From UHGV virus genome UHGV-0112899: DNA of 64,000 nucleotides; one strand, given 5' to 3'. This document shows, piece after piece, positions 1,831 through 56,412 of the stretch. Source of the stretch: a virus. The first letter of the stretch is position 1, and every line of letters starts with the position of its first letter. The notes below the pieces were generated by a model. The model had not been told where the DNA came from, made no database searches, and saw only the letters and a program-made list of their open reading frames with translations. The position numbers and the translations under genes were made by a program.

Positions 1831-2137
1831 GTACTCTCCTTTCGAAATAAACGTACTGATTAATCATTCCCAGGGGCATTTCGAGTTTTTCTGCGATCTC
1901 ACGGCGGGGAACACCACACTGATGAAGCTGCCGCGCCAGTTCTATATCGCTCTGCCGGTATTTGGCTGACTGGTGAAAGTCTCCTTTCAGAATCATGCTG
2001 ATCCGCAGTTGCCGCGCTTTAGTCCTGACAGCACCACCGGTACGCCCGATCAGTCTCCCAATACCCTCGACTGTCATAGTCCCGGCGCACTGGCGGAGTA
2101 TCATGATTTCTGCCCTTCCCCATCCCCGCCAGCTCAC
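1820..2137 (-). CDS. hypothetical small protein with HTH-like segment
   Basis: 105-aa ORF in the same operon; helix-turn-helix-like stretch GVPRREIAEKL. Confidence 0.4.
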   Translation of the reverse strand: MSWRGWGRAEIMILRQCAGTMTVEGIGRLIGRTGGAVRTKARQLRISMILKGDFHQSAKYRQSDIELARQLHQCGVPRREIAEKLEMPLGMINQYVYFERRVHEV

Positions 2138-2745
2138 GCAGAACTCCTTCTAACCAAAAGAACGCCATCTTCAGAAACAACGTTGCAGGACTTCAGGTAA
2201 TTCATTGCCTCTTTCGGTAATGGATTCTTTGGATCGGCGCTTGCCAGGGATTTCGATAACCTCATGATAAATTTGATCATTACCTTCTGACGGAGCTTGT
2301 GCTCATGAGATGCAGACAGGTAATAGGAAATGGTATGGGCTAAACGCTCACGAAGCTGTTCTGTGCCGTGATATACAGCAGCGATATCACGCAGTGCATT
2401 GACCAGTTCCCGGTAAATATGCGGAGCAACCTGGCATTCAATGTTGGTTGGTGACTCATAAATTACATTCAGCCCCAGCTTTTGAGCCAGCTCGTGCTCT
2501 GCACGAGCGCCAACTGATTCCTCCCACCCCTTGAGCAAATAGACCGCATTAGCCGAACGCACCATTGCAAGGCAAATATCCATGTATTCGCTCTGGCAGA
2601 GGCCAGCAGGTAACAGCGCCGGATTCAGAACAATATGCCCTACCTCCATCAGCTCTTTTGCTTTCGAAAAAAACGCTGTGCGGTTGTAGTCGGGATAACC
2701 AGTCATCGGACCCGCGATGTAAATTTTCATAATGCGTTTTGACAT
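2134..2745 (-). CDS. nucleoside 2-deoxyribosyltransferase-like protein (DUF4406-like)
   Basis: N-terminal MKIYIAGPMTGYPDYN motif typical of this family; ATG at 2745 with GGGGA upstream. Confidence 0.5.
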   Translation of the reverse strand: MSKRIMKIYIAGPMTGYPDYNRTAFFSKAKELMEVGHIVLNPALLPAGLCQSEYMDICLAMVRSANAVYLLKGWEESVGARAEHELAQKLGLNVIYESPTNIECQVAPHIYRELVNALRDIAAVYHGTEQLRERLAHTISYYLSASHEHKLRQKVMIKFIMRLSKSLASADPKNPLPKEAMNYLKSCNVVSEDGVLLVRRSSA

Positions 2746-2940
2746 CAAAGTTTCCCCAGGAACGTTACGCAAAAGTTGATGAGAGCAAAGAGTTCAATGC
2801 CCAGCTCAAACAACGCCAGGACAGTGAAAAACAGGGCATATAGCAACCCAATTTCTGTACCGGATTGCTGGTGGATTGCACTTATTGCGACAAGCATCAT
2901 GACCTCCTGATATAGCGTCTGAAAAAAAGTATCTTCATTT

Positions 2941-2974
2941 TGTGTTAGAAAATCAATTTTGATTTTCTAACACA
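2941..2974. promoter_or_regulatory. 34-bp perfect palindrome, putative repressor operator
   Basis: tgtgttagaaaatcaa tt ttgattttctaacaca in a divergent intergenic region; half-site recurs at five other loci. Confidence 0.5.
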
Positions 2975-3017
2975 TTTGATCAACCATAGCGGCGATGTAG
3001 ACAAACCGGGTATTTCT

Positions 3018-3593
3018 ATGAAGCAAAGCTATTGGGAGAAACAGACACAAAAAGCCCTGCAAAAACTGGCTGATCCGAAATGGCGGGAGGAACAAAGGGC
3101 AAAGCGTCTTCAGCAAGCTCAACGCCAGCAGCAGCGTGCGCGAGAAAAAGCCGCATCGCCTGAATATCGGCAAAAGAAAATTGAAAAAGCGAAGCAATAT
3201 GAACAGCGAAGAAAAGAGAAGGCCGCTTCTGCTCCTGTCAAAAAAACTCGCGCGTCACGCGGCCTGAAAGGCAGAACACTCACAGCAGATGAGCGCCGGA
3301 TACAAACTGCCATCGGTGCTCTCCCCTGCATTGCCTGCCATATGCACGGACAGCATAGCCCTGTGGTATCCCTGCACCACATCTTCGGGAGAACAGCAGA
3401 GAACGCGCATAAATACGTCCTCCCTTTGTGTAAATGGCACCATCAACACGCAGCGCCAGCAGAGATCCGCGAGCAATACCCCTGGTTGGTTCCTGTTCAT
3501 GCTGATGGAAAAATAGGCGGCAAAGCAGATTTCAGGCGGCACAATGCTGATGAAATGACGTTGTATCAGATGGTGACTGAATTAATAAATTAA
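3018..3593 (+). CDS. HNH-motif protein with basic N-terminus, Ref-like (DUF968-like)
   Basis: Lys/Arg/Gln-rich N-terminal half, then CIACHMHG...HHIFG...CKWHH Cys/His cluster; ATG at 3018. Confidence 0.45.
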   Translation: MKQSYWEKQTQKALQKLADPKWREEQRAKRLQQAQRQQQRAREKAASPEYRQKKIEKAKQYEQRRKEKAASAPVKKTRASRGLKGRTLTADERRIQTAIGALPCIACHMHGQHSPVVSLHHIFGRTAENAHKYVLPLCKWHHQHAAPAEIREQYPWLVPVHADGKIGGKADFRRHNADEMTLYQMVTELIN

Positions 3594-3607
3594 TTTTCTA
3601 ACATTTT
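3592..3607. promoter_or_regulatory. operator-like motif copy
   Basis: aattttctaacatttt matches the dispersed TGTTAGAAAAT core. Confidence 0.35.
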
Positions 3608-3924
3608 AAGTTGAATTGTGAGATCCACCGTTGTACATTCACAACCGATTGGTACACCGGTCAACTTTTTGAGACAAACCGTTTGGTTTTTCGTATGATT
3701 GCCGCCGCCATACCAATGGCGGTGCAATATAGGTGGCTGAAAAGCCCCCGTTGACTCACGGTGTTCCAGCCTTTATTGCGCCGCCACCAGACCGTGGAAC
3801 AGTCGATGGCGGCTCCGAAAGCAAGGAGTCACTACACTATGAACAGCTACTGTCTTTTCCCATCACTCGTTGTCCGCCACTCACGCGATAATCTGCATTC
3901 TTTACTCGCGCTGGGGGTGTCAAA

Positions 3925-4092
3925 ATGACCGTTCGCTACCTCAACTTTCAAATCCAGAACATCACTGGCGGTTGCTATGACTGGTTTGTCACTCTCGGAA
4001 AAGAAGTGATCACCGGGAAGCTGGATGAAGTGAAAGCTAAAGCAATGGCCTACGCCTGCAAGCAAGCCCAAAAGAAGAAAAGAAAAGCATAA
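3925..4092 (+). CDS. small basic protein (55 aa)
   Basis: ATG preceded by GGGGGTG RBS; below the ORF-track length cutoff; terminator downstream. Confidence 0.3.
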   Translation: MTVRYLNFQIQNITGGCYDWFVTLGKEVITGKLDEVKAKAMAYACKQAQKKKRKA

Positions 4093-4197
4093 GAAAACAC
4101 ACAGTTGCGCCCTGGCATTATCGTGGGGTATATTTCTACGGCACCTTAGAAAAACGGGTGCCGGGATTGGAACCCCGGATAATGCAAAAGGCGACAC

Positions 4198-4220
4198 AGA
4201 CGCCGAAAGCGTCTTTTTTT
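4198..4220 (+). terminator. rho-independent terminator
   Basis: stem agacgc/gcgtct with 5-nt loop followed by T7 run. Confidence 0.6.
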
Positions 4221-4229
4221 GTGTCATGC

Positions 4230-4400
4230 CATCGCACAGCCATGCGTAGCGTTTAGCTCAGAGATCAATGGTAGTGCTGGCTGGGCTGCCGAAAGGCAGG
4301 CCGGTTCCCTTTTGCGCCGGTAGTTCCAACCCAGTCAGTGCTACCGCCATTGAGATTGGAACCTCACGCGGTAGCTCCTTAAATTAGCAAAAGGAGGCTG
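4230..4400 (+). ncRNA. candidate structured leader / antisense-type regulatory RNA (c4-like by position)
   Basis: long-range complementarity (caatggtagtgctgg vs cagtgctaccgccattg) plus ggctgcc hairpin directly upstream of the coupled small ORF and Rha gene. Confidence 0.25.
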
Positions 4401-4405
4401 CCAAT

Positions 4406-4621
4406 ATGGCTACTATCCCTACCCCAACTCATTCTGAATTTATCTGGCGTTTCTATTCCTGCCAAAAACACCTCTATATCTGCGTAATGGCTGCTACCGA
4501 AGCAGAGGCGCGCTCATACCTTCCCGAAGAACCCTGTATTTTTGCTGCTCGCTTCACTCTTGATGCGATGGAGATCCTCAATTACTGGAATCTGCCGATG
4601 AACTGCGTGGAGGTGCACTGA
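4406..4621 (+). CDS. small protein translationally coupled to antirepressor (icd-like by position)
   Basis: AGGAGG RBS; stop overlaps the Rha start (TGATG); paralog at 55481. Confidence 0.5.
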   Translation: MATIPTPTHSEFIWRFYSCQKHLYICVMAATEAEARSYLPEEPCIFAARFTLDAMEILNYWNLPMNCVEVH

Positions 4622-5562
4622 TGAATCTGTCCATCTCTCAAAAAGCGACAATGACCAGCATTGAGATCGCGGAACTGGTGGGAAGTCGTCACTCTGATGT
4701 TAAACGCAGCATCGAAAGACTTGTTGCTAAAGGAGTTATCCAACATACGCCATTGGCTACAGTTGAGAATAATCAATCACTTAGCCCTAATAAATACACA
4801 AAAGCCTATTTCTTCGAAGGCGAACAAGGCAAGCGCGATAGTATTATCGTCGTCGCGCAGCTCTCTCCGGAATTCACCGCCCGGCTGGTGGACCGCTGGC
4901 GCGAACTGGAGAATGTCAGGGGACCGTTAAAATCAAAAGCCGAAATCCTGGCTGAAATGGCGCAAATGCATCTTGAGCATGAACGCAGGATCAACGCCGT
5001 AAATGCCCAGGTAGCCGAGGTATCGGCACAAGTGTCCAGGGTCACCGAAACACTTGAGCAGATCAAGAAAGGCAATATTCCAGAAGGCTACATTGGCTAT
5101 CGCCAGTTGGCGGCAAAATGCGGCCTGACTGAAGCCAAATGCCGCAACCTGGTCAACGCTTACCGGATACCCACTGATACGCATGAGTTTTTAACTCCCG
5201 ACGGTTTGCTTGCGCGACGCTCCATTGTGGCCCTGGCCCCCTTCCGGAAAGCCTTTAAGCAGGTTATGTCGGAGGCAGAACCACGTAACAAACGCTGGTA
5301 TCATCCCAGGATGGGGCTATTTCAGGCCATTCACCATCCTGTGCCTGAAAGTCCAAAGGCAAACCTGTCGTTGCATACCGCCAGAGAGAAGATTAAAACA
5401 GGGTATGCAACCGTATGCCGTCGAGCATCCTGGCCTGAAAGTGTCTGGGTATGGCCCGAAAGAGGCTCACGGAAAAACTGGCGCACCATTCGCGACGGCA
5501 AGATCTGTGCGATTGATTTACAGCCAGAAGATGTAGCAGCGACCGACTGGATTGTTAGTTAA
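4621..5562 (+). CDS. Rha-family phage regulatory protein / antirepressor-like
   Basis: N-terminal SIEIAELVGSRHSDVKRSIERL (Rha-type); paralog at 55705; extra C-terminal domain present here. Confidence 0.65.
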   Translation: MNLSISQKATMTSIEIAELVGSRHSDVKRSIERLVAKGVIQHTPLATVENNQSLSPNKYTKAYFFEGEQGKRDSIIVVAQLSPEFTARLVDRWRELENVRGPLKSKAEILAEMAQMHLEHERRINAVNAQVAEVSAQVSRVTETLEQIKKGNIPEGYIGYRQLAAKCGLTEAKCRNLVNAYRIPTDTHEFLTPDGLLARRSIVALAPFRKAFKQVMSEAEPRNKRWYHPRMGLFQAIHHPVPESPKANLSLHTAREKIKTGYATVCRRASWPESVWVWPERGSRKNWRTIRDGKICAIDLQPEDVAATDWIVS

Positions 5563-14367: not shown

Positions 14368-14415
14368 GCAAAACTGTGTTAGATAATTGAGTTTTATTTT
14401 CTAACACAGTTTTGC
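14368..14415. promoter_or_regulatory. 48-bp near-perfect inverted repeat with operator core
   Basis: gcaaaactgtgttagataa ... ttttctaacacagttttgc between the spike gene and rdgC. Confidence 0.5.
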
Positions 14416-22453: not shown

Positions 22454-22531
22454 GTTCTAATGTTTTATGTTAGAAAATTAAGATTAAACCATACTAACAC
22501 AAGATTGTTAACGAAAATTATTTTTCTAATG
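22454..22531. promoter_or_regulatory. cluster of three operator-like motifs in a divergent promoter region
   Basis: gttctaatg (22454-22462), tgttagaaaat (22469-22479), ttttctaatg (22522-22531). Confidence 0.45.
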
Positions 22532-24793: not shown

Positions 24794-26449
24794 ATGAATA
24801 AAATTGGTTTTTCTGTTGGTCAGGCGGCGGGCGTTGCGGTAGCGGACGTAAATGCCGATGCTATTCTGTCCAACACATCTGGCGGTGCTTCCGTCTTTGC
24901 CGGGCTGGTGATTTCCCGCAGAGGAGCACCAGGCAAGGTTTTGCAGGTTACAGCAGCCAACTATCAGAGCGTGTTAGGTTCACCTCTTCACCCGCGCACC
25001 GGGGCCGCATTTGAACCATATCGCCACGTTGAACGCGCAGTAAAAGGCGGCACCGGTTATGTGGTTCGCGTATGCGCAAAAGACATGAAAGTACCGGGCA
25101 TTGCCGTTTCTGTTCAGGCCAGGTCGAAAAGCACCAAGTCAGCAAAAACTCTGCAAATTGCTCCGACCGAAGCAACGGTAAATATCGGCGATACACTGAC
25201 CGTTCGTGCCGTTTCTGGAGCCACTTCTCCGGTAACTTTCGCTGCAAGCGAAACACCTGAAATTTCCGGCAGTGAACTGGCTATTTTCTACATAAAGGAC
25301 GGTGATGCTTCGACAAACCGCACGTTATCACTGACCCGTGAGGACGAAGAAAATGACCTGTTCACTCTGGAACTGAAAGAGACACAGACCGATGGTTCTG
25401 TAGAAACTTTGGAAAGCTACCAGGTTTCTTTCGATCCGGATGCAACGAACGATATGGGCCAGCCAGCATGGATTCCTGCGTTGTTAGAAAGTCAGTCCTC
25501 CAGGCTTGGAGCTGTACTGGCTGATGGTGCCGAAGACTCCGCTCACTTGCTGACTTTCGAAGATGTAGCGTTTGAAGGCGGTACAGATGGCGATCTGTCC
25601 TCAATTGACGCTGATGATTATCTGAAAGCGTTAGAGGTTCTCGAAGCGTCAGAAGTTAATTATACCGCACTGCTTTCTATGGGCTGCTACGACGCATCCG
25701 TGCTGGCAAAAATTAATTCGCTGGCAGAAGACGTTCGCGTGGATATGTTCTACGACCTGAAATGTGCTCAGACTGGTGATAACGCTATCGCGGAAGCTAA
25801 ATCACATGGTTTCGGCAAATCCCACCAGGCTGCACGTTATCACTTCCCGTACTCATGCCGTGACACTTTCAGCGGTATGAATGTGGTTTACGGAATCAGT
25901 TGTGATGCGTTCGTGGCAAAAGCGAAAGGCGTTGCGCTTGTGTCTGATGTAGGCGGCTGGCATTACGCCCCGGCTGGTCTGTCTCGCGCAATCATTGATC
26001 GCCAGAACATCACCAGACTCTCCGGAATTGGCACAATCGATCGTGAAGCGTATGTGACCGCTCGTATTAACCCTGTAAGCGTTGCAGCGGATGGTTCTGT
26101 CTACATCGACGACTCCCTGACGACATACAGCAAAAATAACTATCTGCGATTCCAGCACGTTTCATCACTGATGAATGCAATTGCCCGCAATTTCTATGAA
26201 GTTGCTCAGGCAATCAAGCATGAACCTGATGGCGTTACGCAGGAAAGTCTGACTAACGCACTGACAGATCTTCTGGACCGTTTTTATGCGGCTGGTGCGC
26301 TGGTTACACCACGCGATGAATCTCAAGGTTCTGACCCTTATGTGGTCAAGGTAACTCAAAAAGACATCGACTTGTGGGAAGTGGAATGGTCCGTGTGCCC
26401 AACAGGCACTGCCCGTCGAATCCTCGGCAAACCAATCCTGATGCGTTGA
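24794..26449 (+). CDS. virion structural protein, possibly tail sheath
   Basis: 551 aa with internal Ig-like insertion; AGAGGA RBS; assignment tentative. Confidence 0.3.
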   Translation: MNKIGFSVGQAAGVAVADVNADAILSNTSGGASVFAGLVISRRGAPGKVLQVTAANYQSVLGSPLHPRTGAAFEPYRHVERAVKGGTGYVVRVCAKDMKVPGIAVSVQARSKSTKSAKTLQIAPTEATVNIGDTLTVRAVSGATSPVTFAASETPEISGSELAIFYIKDGDASTNRTLSLTREDEENDLFTLELKETQTDGSVETLESYQVSFDPDATNDMGQPAWIPALLESQSSRLGAVLADGAEDSAHLLTFEDVAFEGGTDGDLSSIDADDYLKALEVLEASEVNYTALLSMGCYDASVLAKINSLAEDVRVDMFYDLKCAQTGDNAIAEAKSHGFGKSHQAARYHFPYSCRDTFSGMNVVYGISCDAFVAKAKGVALVSDVGGWHYAPAGLSRAIIDRQNITRLSGIGTIDREAYVTARINPVSVAADGSVYIDDSLTTYSKNNYLRFQHVSSLMNAIARNFYEVAQAIKHEPDGVTQESLTNALTDLLDRFYAAGALVTPRDESQGSDPYVVKVTQKDIDLWEVEWSVCPTGTARRILGKPILMR

Positions 26450-53902: not shown

Positions 53903-53917
53903 GCTAAAAGCTAGCTT

Positions 53918-53950
53918 AATTTTCTAACACAGTGTGTTTTTATACACTGT
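53918..53950. promoter_or_regulatory. operator-like motif with adjacent inverted repeat
   Basis: aattttctaacacagtgtg plus IR acagtgt/acactgt. Confidence 0.4.
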
Positions 53951-54101: not shown

Positions 54102-55064
54102 GTGAGTATTTTAAATTCAGTTTCAGTTACTTTCAACACTTCTGAGTATAAAAACAACACTGAATACCACAAAAAAATCAAAGGTCATCAGTTGAGTTTT
54201 TTTGCTCGTCATAGCGGTTTTCTTTCCCCTTCACATAGCGCCATTATTGCCGAGTTCGCCAACCTGGCAGGAGCTACCGATGAATACATGATCCGTCGCT
54301 CATATGCGGATATGTCCGAGATTACAGGACGCAGTATTTCTACTGTGCGCCGGGCATTTGCCGAAGCGACGAAGTGCGGAATGCTTGTTAAGCAGCATCA
54401 GGTAGCGAATAACAATGCTCAGGTGTGTAACGTGTACCGGTTTACAACACAATTTCTCCACTTCATTCATGTAGCAATGGAGATAGGGAGTAAGCAGGGC
54501 ATCAAATTTGCCAACGCCACAAAACTGGTTAAGCAGTTGATTTCAAAGGTTCGTTATTTTTTTGAAACTGGGAACCCCCTGTTCAAATTGAACAAGTCCC
54601 CCCATGTTCAAAATGAACAGCCAATAGAAAATAAGAGTCACTCTATAGCCAAAAGAAGAGAAAGATCATGCGCGGTTCAGCCAAAGGCTTCACCAGCAGA
54701 TAGTTCTCAAGCGGATAATGGGGGGCTGGATAAAAAACCAGTAATCAGGGAAGAACATACCAACCACTGCCTGGCGGCGGCAAAAGCGAGAGCTGCAAAG
54801 CGTCGTTCAGATGAGGGGCACGCAAAACGGCAGGCTCTGTATCGTACCGCTGAAAAGCTGGCAAAAAAATTTGCATGGATACGTAGTGCCGCTACAGCAG
54901 TGAATAAGCCTAAACAATCCAGTGCCCTGGATTTCTCAATGGATTATTCTGGCTCCCAGGGGTGTGCAACCATTGGTGAAGCCTTTGACCTGATGAAACA
55001 GCGTGGCTATCGGTCTGAATTTGACCGGGAAGACTGGTCAATTCCGGAGGGCTTTCGGGGATGA
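54102..55064 (+). CDS. HTH-containing protein, possible replication initiator (RepL-like by position)
   Basis: 320 aa; HTH-like SISTVRRAFAEATKCGML; flanked by operator-like motifs; GTG start uncertain. Confidence 0.3.
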   Translation: MSILNSVSVTFNTSEYKNNTEYHKKIKGHQLSFFARHSGFLSPSHSAIIAEFANLAGATDEYMIRRSYADMSEITGRSISTVRRAFAEATKCGMLVKQHQVANNNAQVCNVYRFTTQFLHFIHVAMEIGSKQGIKFANATKLVKQLISKVRYFFETGNPLFKLNKSPHVQNEQPIENKSHSIAKRRERSCAVQPKASPADSSQADNGGLDKKPVIREEHTNHCLAAAKARAAKRRSDEGHAKRQALYRTAEKLAKKFAWIRSAATAVNKPKQSSALDFSMDYSGSQGCATIGEAFDLMKQRGYRSEFDREDWSIPEGFRG

Positions 55065-55121: not shown

Positions 55122-55221
55122 TGTTAGAAAATTAAATTGATGTTTCTAATCAAGAATGTATGATTTATATCGTCACTAAAAAACAGCATCTGATAAAAAT
55201 TCTGTTGATCTTTCTAATGTT
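55122..55221. promoter_or_regulatory. cluster of three operator-like motifs
   Basis: tgttagaaaattaa (55122-55135), tgtttctaatc (55141-55151), tttctaatg (55211-55219). Confidence 0.45.
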
Positions 55222-55239
55222 CAGGCTTATATTCATGCC

Positions 55240-55470
55240 GTCGTAGCAAATTCTGCGACCGGGTTTAGCAGCCTGAATGTTAGTGCGGACAACCGCAGAT
55301 ATCCGATATTGCGGTATTTTTGTGTCCGTAAAACCGCGTTACGCCCAAATTATGGTGGGGCGTGATGGGGAGGCTTCGGCCTGCTGGTTTCACTAACGCC
55401 AGTCTGCTAACCCCGTCACGTCCTGCCACCTGTTTAGCAGCGGGTAGCAGGTTGTTAAACCTGTTAGTGA
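55240..55470 (+). ncRNA. candidate structured leader / regulatory RNA of second immunity cassette
   Basis: multiple complementary segments (gtttagcagcc / cctgtttagcagcgggtagcagg) upstream of the coupled small ORF. Confidence 0.2.
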
Positions 55471-55480
55471 GGCCGTAACT

Positions 55481-55705
55481 ATGGTTAATGCCAATCCTTG
55501 CTCACGTCCAGAATTCATCTGGCGTTTTCACTCCCTGCAAAAACACTGCGATCACTTCGCAATTGCCGCAACTGAAAAAGAAGCCCGTTCTCTGATCCCT
55601 GATCAGTATGGCGTTCTCACTGGTCGTTTCTCTACTTCCCCACAACCAAACACCAATCCCTGGTATCGCAATATTACCAATCCCGGCATTGCGGAGGCTC
55701 ACTGA
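55481..55705 (+). CDS. small protein coupled to antirepressor (icd-like by position), paralog of 4406-4621
   Basis: shared EFIWRF...AATE.EARS motif with the first copy; TGATG overlap with the Rha gene. Confidence 0.5.
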   Translation: MVNANPCSRPEFIWRFHSLQKHCDHFAIAATEKEARSLIPDQYGVLTGRFSTSPQPNTNPWYRNITNPGIAEAH

Positions 55706-56412
55706 TGGATATCTGCATTCTCGAAAAGCCATCAATGACCAGCATTGAGATCGCGGAGCTGGTGGGAAAACGTCATGACAATGTGAAACGCACTATTGAG
55801 ACATTAGACAAAGGTGGCGTTATTGTTCGTCCTCAAATTGAGGTTTTCGAAAAAATCAATAACTTAGGACTACGACGTAGTGTTGAGGCTTACGTCTTCG
55901 AAGGCGAGCAAGGCAAGCGCGATAGCATTATCGTCGTCGCGCAGCTCTCTCCCGAATTCACCGCCCGGCTGGTGGACCGCTGGCGCGAACTGGAAGAACA
56001 AGTACGCCAGCCGTTGACCGAAATAGAGATGATCGCTGCAATGGCTGCAAATGCAGTTCAGCAGCAAAAGCGGCTTCATGTTGTTGAGTCAAAGGTTAGC
56101 CAGGTTGCTGAAACCGTCGAGCAGATCAAGAAGGGCAACATGCCAGAAGGTTACATTGGCTATCGTCAGTTAGCGGCGAAATGCGGCCTGACTGAAGCCA
56201 AATGCCGCAACCTGGTCAACGCTTACCGGATTCCCACAGATACGCATGAGTTTATGACGCCAGAGGTGGTATTGTCGCGTCGTACTATTGTGGCCTTATC
56301 TCCCTTCATGAATGCCTTTACCCTGATGATGTCGGAGGCTGAACACCGAGGAAAACGCTGGTATCACCCAAGGATGGGACAATTCCAGGTGATCGGTTGG
56401 GGAGGCGAGTGA
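55705..56412 (+). CDS. Rha-family phage regulatory protein / antirepressor-like, paralog of 4621-5562
   Basis: SIEIAELVGKRHDNVKRTIETL; ~105-bp and ~110-bp stretches near-identical to the first copy. Confidence 0.65.
   Translation: MDICILEKPSMTSIEIAELVGKRHDNVKRTIETLDKGGVIVRPQIEVFEKINNLGLRRSVEAYVFEGEQGKRDSIIVVAQLSPEFTARLVDRWRELEEQVRQPLTEIEMIAAMAANAVQQQKRLHVVESKVSQVAETVEQIKKGNMPEGYIGYRQLAAKCGLTEAKCRNLVNAYRIPTDTHEFMTPEVVLSRRTIVALSPFMNAFTLMMSEAEHRGKRWYHPRMGQFQVIGWGGE

Follow-up and report, generated by a model that had tools for sequence, protein, structure and literature searches.

What is the role of a perfect 34-bp palindrome located between a gene for a deoxyribosyltransferase-like DUF4406 protein and a divergently oriented gene for a Ref-type HNH endonuclease, and do the two gene products act together? 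The question arises from a stretch of 64,000 nucleotides of the virus genome UHGV-0112899 (referred to as the window, i.e., the whole stretch of DNA analyzed). An earlier note on this DNA had proposed that the two genes, arranged around a palindromic operator, may belong to a repressor-controlled DNA-metabolism or anti-defence unit. Our results make it likely that the locus represents the ref control region of a D6-like prophage, in which the palindrome functions as a C1-type operator over two divergent units. Ref and the DUF4406 protein probably share regulation, not a joint mechanism.

Judged by nucleotide identity, the window belongs to the D6-like plasmid prophages (phage-plasmids) of the P1 family. 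The locus (2.4 kb) shares 89.8% DNA identity with Escherichia phage D6, and its best match in PLSDB was the Escherichia marmotae plasmid NZ_CP099353 (99.7% identity). In total, 112 plasmids in PLSDB matched the locus, 110 of them carrying the whole Ref–DUF4406 gene pair, and names assigned by PGAP are present for both genes in the matched plasmids. The D6 record features the same arrangement, namely orf87 (‘Ref-like RecA filament endonuclease’), orf88 (hypothetical), and orf89 (‘DUF4406 domain-containing protein’), and D6 as well as D6-like plasmid prophages such as pYU39_89 agree with the window in the identity, order, and orientation of these genes. The arrangement is not new, having already been annotated by homology in D6 and about 110 plasmid records. 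No operator is annotated in the D6-like records, including the D6 GenBank record.

The palindrome and its half-sites

The two genes are indeed oriented divergently, as described in the earlier note (DUF4406 at 2134–2745 on the minus strand, ref at 3018–3593 on the plus strand). The palindrome between them was recovered at positions 2941–2974 as a perfect inverted repeat, composed of two arms of 16 nt (2941–2956 and 2959–2974; 100% complementary) and a 2-nt center. What did not hold is the picture of DUF4406 lying next to it: the gene is not promoter-proximal, and a 51-amino-acid (aa) open reading frame (ORF; 2745–2900) intervenes. The palindrome is the longest perfect inverted repeat across the 64-kb window; in 30 Markov-1 simulations, the longest arm reached 11 nt compared to the 16 nt observed.

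The palindrome contains two half-sites abutting head-to-head, one at 2943–2957 on the minus strand (ATTGATTTTCTAACA) and one at 2958–2972 on the plus strand (TTTGATTTTCTAACA). Allowing for up to three mismatches, the half-site ATTGATTTTCTAACA was found ten times in the window compared to 2.9 matches expected, a number that none of 100 shuffles reached, and the core TTTCTAACA occurred eight times (0.63 expected). Matches in D6, counted for two halves, amounted to 7 and 10 (about 2.4 expected per half), and nine matches were found in the near-identical plasmid NZ_CP099353, with 0.8 expected. The half-site consensus for the window reads (A/T)TT(G/A)ATTTTCTAACA. Considering the perfect inverted repeat (16/16), the enrichment of the half-site, and the conservation of its core, the most plausible role of the palindrome (2941–2974, no strand assigned) is that of a bivalent operator, to which the prophage repressor C1 of the D6 type would bind.

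In the alignment of D6-like elements, the operator core forms an invariant island surrounded by intergenic DNA that has diverged. Hardly any variation was seen in the left half-site, and most of the elements feature a degenerate right half-site (TTTGAATATCTAAyn). A perfect inverted repeat with 16-nt arms might also represent a structural DNA or RNA element such as a cruciform, a bidirectional terminator, or a recombination site, and D6 is known to carry rox and cix recombination sites elsewhere. However, the combination of an invariant left arm with a right arm that is degenerate in most relatives fits protein half-sites and not a hairpin maintained by compensatory pairing, and single half-sites elsewhere in the element indicate that symmetry is not required. 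Furthermore, the palindrome is AT-rich, features neither a GC stem nor a flanking T-run, was not called by the terminator scan, and lies between two divergent start codons, where there is nothing to terminate. A structural element was rejected as extremely improbable.

The DNA on both sides of the palindrome (2901–2940 and 2975–3017) strongly diverged from D6, whereas the coding regions are about 90% identical. These flanks, which include the leftward −10 element, the 5′-untranslated region (5′-UTR) of the leftward transcript, the ref 5′-UTR, and the ref Shine–Dalgarno sequence, also differ between the window and the D6-like records in their promoter and 5′-UTR sequences. Diverged flanks around a fixed operator suggest either a recombination boundary or fast-evolving expression signals.

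Distribution of the half-site over the element

Further half-sites were found dispersed over the window. A predicted monovalent D6-type C1 operator (ATTAATTTTCTAACA; 3589–3603, plus strand) overlaps the ref stop codon (3591–3593) at the head of the immI-like (c4/icd/ant) region, two abutting inverted half-sites (14377–14406) precede the hrdC/dmt-like operon, and one half-site at 22468 is located in a divergent region upstream of the capsid gene. A single half-site (53915–53929) lies before the repL homologue (54102–55064), and a predicted bivalent operator (55122–55136/55137–55151) precedes a second icd/ant module. The operator-like half-site ACTGACTTTCTAACA at 25482–25496 resides inside the tail-sheath gene, being the sole copy of TTTCTAACA that is not intergenic; this copy may match by chance or may represent an internal site. 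In D6 and NZ_CP099353, the motif also lies upstream of two further genes, namely c1, which encodes the repressor (at a distance of 14–30 bp), and the lpa homologue (about 80 bp). Further bivalent D6-type operators of the same geometry are predicted in NZ_CP099353 (6844–6873 and 10682–10711) and D6 (64116–64145), and every bivalent D6-type operator seen consists of two 15-nt half-sites placed head-to-head with no gap and no overlap.

Comparison with the C1 regulon of phage P1

Phage P1 provides the obvious reference for such a distribution. Its asymmetric 17-bp C1 operator has been described to occur in 22 copies dispersed over the genome (PMC8546580), and c1, lpa, repL, immI, and ref are under C1 control (PMC8546580 and P1 record annotation), ref being a C1-repressed gene of the lytic cycle (PMC4713147). 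Sites were found at homologues of exactly these genes, namely at ref, immI, and repL in the window, and at c1 and lpa in D6 and NZ_CP099353. The suggestion that the palindrome acts as a repressor operator is supported by a dispersed and significantly enriched half-site at the positions of P1 C1 operators.

A local regulator might bind the palindrome instead, for example, the 105-aa putative DNA-binding protein of the helix-turn-helix (HTH) type encoded at 1820–2137 on the minus strand, which would then autoregulate the leftward operon together with ref. This protein is encoded in the operon downstream of the palindrome and matched phrog_323 (‘transcriptional regulator, D5-like’, E = 1e-26), with a weak match to Sigma70_r4_2 and the PGAP name ‘DNA-binding protein’; moreover, symmetric sites suit dimeric HTH proteins. 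On the other hand, the dispersal of the half-site over the whole element, at the c1, lpa, repL, and immI homologues, is the signature of a P1 master repressor regulon. Many of the sites are single asymmetric half-sites, as is the case for the monomeric P1 C1, and the HTH gene would be silent in the lysogen, when the sites need to be occupied. Control by the local HTH protein was rejected as very improbable, and C1 remains the preferred candidate.

Regarding the ref locus itself, two C1 operators are annotated in the curated P1 record: Oref (Op2a) lies inside the promoter P2ref, and Omat (Op2b) extends across the ref stop codon. Both elements share this operator–ref–operator layout, with one site in the ref promoter and one over the stop codon. 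The P1 operator Oref is monovalent and serves only ref, its upstream neighbor c8 being co-directional, whereas the operator in the window is bivalent and would serve two divergent proposed promoters. Downstream of ref, the window features immI (c4/icd/ant), compared to mat in P1.

Bivalent operators assembled from two inverted monovalent sites are also annotated in the curated P1 record, for example, Oc1ab. Like the palindrome of the window, Oc1ab comprises two opposed half-sites forming an imperfect or perfect palindrome over the −35 region and belongs to a dispersed multi-site regulon (PMC8546580). The geometry differs: in Oc1ab, two 17-mers overlap by 6 bp to give 28 bp in total, whereas D6-type half-sites abut and occupy about 30–34 bp. 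The operator sequences differ as well (ATTGATTTTCTAACA in the window, ATTGCTCTAATAAATTT in P1), and, by comparison of the motifs, the site belongs to the D6-type operators, whose specificity is distinct from that of the P1 operators.

The D6-like element (3589–3603) and P1 (2628–2645) both feature a C1-type operator over the stop codon of ref, despite different downstream genes and operator sequences. Ref may be located at a conserved regulatory boundary, or it may move as an operator-flanked cassette. The sequence TAATAAATT at the 3′ end of ref might be left over from a P1-type operator, but in AT-rich sequence it is indistinguishable from chance.

The D6-type repressor and the proposed promoters

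In D6 and NZ_CP099353, the C1 gene is located between a recombinase gene (cre/rox-like) and pacB. Its product, the D6-type C1, is distantly homologous to the C1 of P1 (21% identity over 241 aa, E = 2e-7), is 81% conserved between D6 and NZ_CP099353, and matched no Pfam family. A literature search for a D6-type operator consensus, the D6 genome paper being outside its scope, returned nothing relevant.

Two back-to-back promoters are proposed at the palindrome, a TTGATT hexamer being located inside each half-site. The proposed ref promoter (2959–2987, plus strand) would consist of a −35 element TTGATT (2959–2964), a 17-nt spacer, and a −10 element AACCAT (2982–2987). The latter reads AATCAT in D6, and a TTGA..N..A(A/T)CAT block was kept in all D6-like sequences aligned. 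The proposed leftward promoter (2928–2956, minus strand) would comprise TTGATT (2956–2951), again a 17-nt spacer, and GATACT (2933–2928); at the corresponding position, D6 features TTGATT-16-TAATAT.

Several observations weigh against a C1-controlled pair of promoters. The motif of the window does not satisfy the P1 consensus ATTGCTCTAATAAATTT, as only ATTG and TCTAA are common to both and the spacing is 3 nt longer. Perfect symmetry of the palindrome is specific to the sub-lineage of the window, the right half-site being degenerate in D6 and most relatives. The proposed promoters match the consensus at 8 of 12 (leftward) and 7 of 12 (ref) positions, and a sigma-70 consensus scan with a threshold of 9/12 called no promoter in the intergenic region 2901–3017. 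Finally, a tblastn search with the D6 C1 against the window was negative. As the window itself does not encode a repressor, C1 control rests on the relatives of the element, and binding of C1 to D6-type operators is inferred from comparison with them.

The Ref homologue

The assignment of the rightward gene (191 aa) to the RecA-dependent HNH endonucleases was confirmed. Its product matched the Pfam family RecA_dep_nuc (PF16786) with E = 5.2e-36 and 123.3 bits (gathering cut-off 26.9), covering model positions 2–102 of 103. Comparison with the sequence of the P1 Ref structure (3PLW) by phmmer resulted in E = 3e-52, and phrog_2321 (‘Ref-like RecA filament endonuclease’) was matched with E = 2e-81. 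The protein shares 54% identity with P1 Ref and 92% with D6 Ref.

In the alignment with 3PLW, the motifs SLHHI, CxWHHQH, and VPVHADG occupy identical positions, including His134 and His153 of P1 Ref, which have been described to coordinate zinc and to be needed for nuclease activity (PMC4713147). The basic N-terminus reported previously was also recovered: residues 1–88 contain 28 Lys and Arg compared to 9 Asp and Glu (isoelectric point 10.9), and the C-terminal part represents the nuclease domain. For P1 Ref, a charged, unstructured, DNA-binding N-domain of 76 aa with 25 positive residues was reported (PMC4713147). The protein is orthologous to P1 Ref, sharing its His positions and a basic N-terminal region. 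By homology, the D6-type Ref should cut RecA-bound single-stranded DNA and D-loops, and reinforce the SOS response and the lytic switch.

In the D6-like plasmid p13ZX36-90 (NZ_MN101855, 2290–3900), a partial tandem duplication was observed, in which a truncated ref copy is followed by the full ref. The right half of the operator and the conserved promoter block precede each of the two copies.

The proposed leftward operon

The first gene of the leftward operon is the ORF at 2745–2900 (minus strand), corresponding to orf88 in D6. It encodes a very hydrophobic protein of 51 aa (grand average of hydropathy (GRAVY) 1.46), is preceded by an AGGAGG Shine–Dalgarno sequence, and matched phrog_8890 (E = 7e-31). 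Its stop codon overlaps the DUF4406 start (TGATG), and the DUF4406 stop codon overlaps the GTG start of the gene for the 105-aa HTH-type protein (GTGA). Further genes with overlapping ORFs follow on the minus strand (722–1830), encoding a phrog_614 protein (1327–1830) and an Ead/Ea22-like protein (722–1363). Because stops and starts overlap along the leftward genes, they appear to form one long accessory operon, of which DUF4406 is one cistron; a comparable run of minus-strand accessory genes is found in D6. As deduced from this gene arrangement, DUF4406 takes the second position in a compact leftward operon composed of accessory genes of the lambdoid type and does not constitute a partner of ref in its own right.

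The DUF4406 protein

The family assignment of the leftward protein, for which a hidden Markov model (HMM) search had been requested, proved correct. The ORF, containing the MKIYIAGPMTG motif, matched the full Pfam model of DUF4406 (PF14359, positions 1–91) with E = 6.9e-35 and 119.8 bits (cut-off 22), as well as phrog_355 with E = 4e-44. Its likely ATG start is at 2745 (gene 2134–2745, minus strand); the resulting length of 203 aa fits the one annotated in D6, and a cluster of 52 members shares 100% identity with the protein. The Pfam domain covers only residues 1–91. Full-length homologues were confined to the D6-like lineage, with identities as low as 69%, whereas the N-terminal ~95 residues occur elsewhere in many phages, either as stand-alone proteins of 110–130 aa or fused to other modules.

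In an AlphaFold model computed from 41 sequences, residues 1–100 were predicted confidently (pLDDT 81–97, with values above 90 for the N-terminal domain), and the N-terminal domain (aa 1–~97) adopts the fold of nucleoside 2-deoxyribosyltransferases (NDT) and MilB. A Foldseek search against viral models returned phage proteins named ‘deoxyribosyltransferase’ and ‘hydrolase’, as well as dATP/dGTP-diphosphohydrolase fusion proteins. Within the alignment of the 41 homologues, L71, W74, S77, G79, A80, and E83 are invariant, and the IYIAGPMTG loop is nearly so. Similarly, nucleotide N-glycosidases of the NDT superfamily (DNPH1/Rcl, the cytidine monophosphate (CMP) hydrolases MilB/BcmB, and 4JEN) feature an (I/V)Y(I/F)AGP strand-loop at the N-terminus. 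Profile alignment, with marginal E-values, placed S77-x5-E83 onto S-P-G-T-H-I-E of the CMP N-glycosidase 4JEN and onto D-C-G-T-A-F-E of the Trypanosoma brucei NDT 2A0K, so that S77 aligns with the Ser of 4JEN and the Asp of the NDT 2A0K in alignments that are weak (E = 0.17–0.34). The nucleophile of human DNPH1 is E104, and the 5′-phosphate is bound by S98, which precedes it by six residues (PMC10603095); judged by these weak alignments, the DUF4406 protein would share with DNPH1 (S98/E104) and 4JEN a Ser located six residues before the nucleophilic Glu.

Owing to the NDT/MilB fold and the Ser-x5-Glu motif, the DUF4406 protein is proposed, with modest confidence, to act as an N-glycosidase on (deoxy)nucleoside monophosphates and not as a nucleoside transferase. 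Phage homologues of DUF4406 are fused to, or adjoin, MazG-like pyrophosphohydrolases and deoxycytidine monophosphate (dCMP) deaminases, and a role in the nucleotide pool would therefore fit. Three points speak against this assignment. Taken alone, the matches to enzymes of solved structure do not reach significance (E = 0.17–0.39), the C-terminal half of the model is helical and poorly resolved (pLDDT 31–72), and a full-text search revealed no DUF4406 member with a published activity, returning three incidental mentions only. The protein also differs from the NDT superfamily enzymes in several respects: sequence similarity is marginal, DUF4406 being a separate Pfam family; about 105 aa of additional, helical sequence follow at the C-terminus; and the equivalent of their general-acid Asp has no secure assignment.

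A more far-reaching proposal assumes that DUF4406 is a lytic-phase N-glycosidase acting on a non-canonical substrate, for example, a modified deoxynucleoside monophosphate (dNMP) or, as the NDT fold is related to TIR and SLOG, an immune signal derived from nucleotides. D6-like elements would then have recruited DUF4406 to the repressor switch of Ref, so that host DNA damage and the clearance of nucleotides or signals are deployed together at induction. The evidence does not favor this reading, which we regard as highly improbable speculation; the N-glycosidase with a role in the nucleotide pool is retained.

The C-terminal helical region (2134–2440 in the window, aa ~105–203) is lineage-specific and lies outside the DUF4406 domain; Pfam returned only a chance-level match for the C-terminal half. 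For residues ~105–150, matches were obtained to five PHROGs without an assigned function and, with 69% identity over 32 aa, to a protein of Edwardsiella phage Edno5. By these matches, the segment looks like a mobile helical module, perhaps serving oligomerization or protein binding.

Do Ref and DUF4406 form a functional unit?

The proposed DNA-metabolism or anti-defence unit would require that Ref and DUF4406 form a dedicated two-gene module with a shared substrate or pathway. The pair is conserved in D6 and its relatives, but conservation within one closely related lineage (at least 79% DNA identity) is not independent evidence. Outside the D6 lineage, the two genes occur apart. The DUF4406 domain was found in 603 phage records, mainly of Mycobacterium, Vibrio, Arthrobacter, and Pseudomonas phages, whereas Ref was found in 23 phage records comprising D6, P1-type phages, and a few Pseudomonas phages; D6 alone is common to both match lists. 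P1-type phages carry ref without DUF4406, the P1 ref being flanked by c8 and mat, and DUF4406 occurs in lambdoid nin regions as well as in T7-like and N15-like contexts without Ref. Three distant DUF4406 genes were checked in their context, which was a lambdoid nin region, a position between unnamed small genes and lysis/terminase genes on a phage-like contig, and a region with RdgC, SSB, antiterminator Q, and integrase; none of them had a Ref neighbor.

Within the locus, another ORF separates DUF4406 from the operator, and DUF4406 is embedded in a long operon. PADLOC defence models gave no match to five proteins of the locus, and NCBIfam gave none to four. The idea of a DNA-metabolism or anti-defence unit is not supported, and an obligate Ref–DUF4406 module was rejected as very improbable. 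The only link between the two genes is their predicted joint control by one operator.

Proposed regulatory model

In the lysogen, C1 bound to the palindrome would shut both back-to-back promoters, the −35 hexamer TTGATT of each being positioned inside one half-site. Upon induction or infection, ref would be transcribed rightward, giving an HNH nuclease that depends on Zn and has a basic, presumably unstructured N-terminus for DNA binding. This Ref would cut RecA-bound DNA and boost the SOS response and the lytic switch, as its counterpart does in P1. The leftward transcript would direct translationally coupled synthesis of the 51-aa membrane peptide, the DUF4406 protein, the small HTH protein, and Ead/Ea22-type proteins. 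DUF4406, with E83 as putative nucleophile and S77 as the phosphate-type residue, most likely would cleave or exchange the base of a (deoxy)nucleoside monophosphate and may thereby adjust nucleotide pools during lytic growth.

Neighboring regions

The immI-like region (3600–5562) directly follows ref. It comprises a sub-threshold C4-like RNA (3712–3791; 39.5 bits compared to a gathering score of 45), a conserved 55-aa ORF (3925–4092), an isrK-like RNA (4141–4219; 62.5 bits), a C4 antisense RNA (4264–4351; 76.7 bits), icd (4406–4621), and a gene for a Rha/Ant-type antirepressor (4621–5562). The presence of C4-like elements in tandem suggests that antisense control is duplicated or layered. About 55 nt after ref, a consensus scan identified a terminator-like hairpin with a T-run (3647–3672, plus strand), which could be the ref terminator or an immI leader element.

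A second icd/ant-type module with its own predicted bivalent operator is located at 55122–56412, just after the repL homologue. Likewise, two c4/icd regions were described for D6 and pYU39_89 (PMC6799933).

Implications for D6-like prophages

Beyond annotation, the finding matters little; the residual interest lies in the DUF4406 enzymes and in the consensus and geometry of the D6-type operator. DUF4406 is widespread in phages (more than 600 genomes) and uncharacterized, and its conserved Y9/S77/E83 set provides a concrete nucleotide N-glycosidase hypothesis. D6-like plasmid prophages are common in Escherichia coli and Salmonella. They appear to keep the P1 logic of a dispersed C1 operator regulon with an operator-flanked ref, but with another operator sequence and another bivalent geometry. 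The operator consensus could be used to predict the early/lytic regulon and the immunity specificity of D6-like elements.

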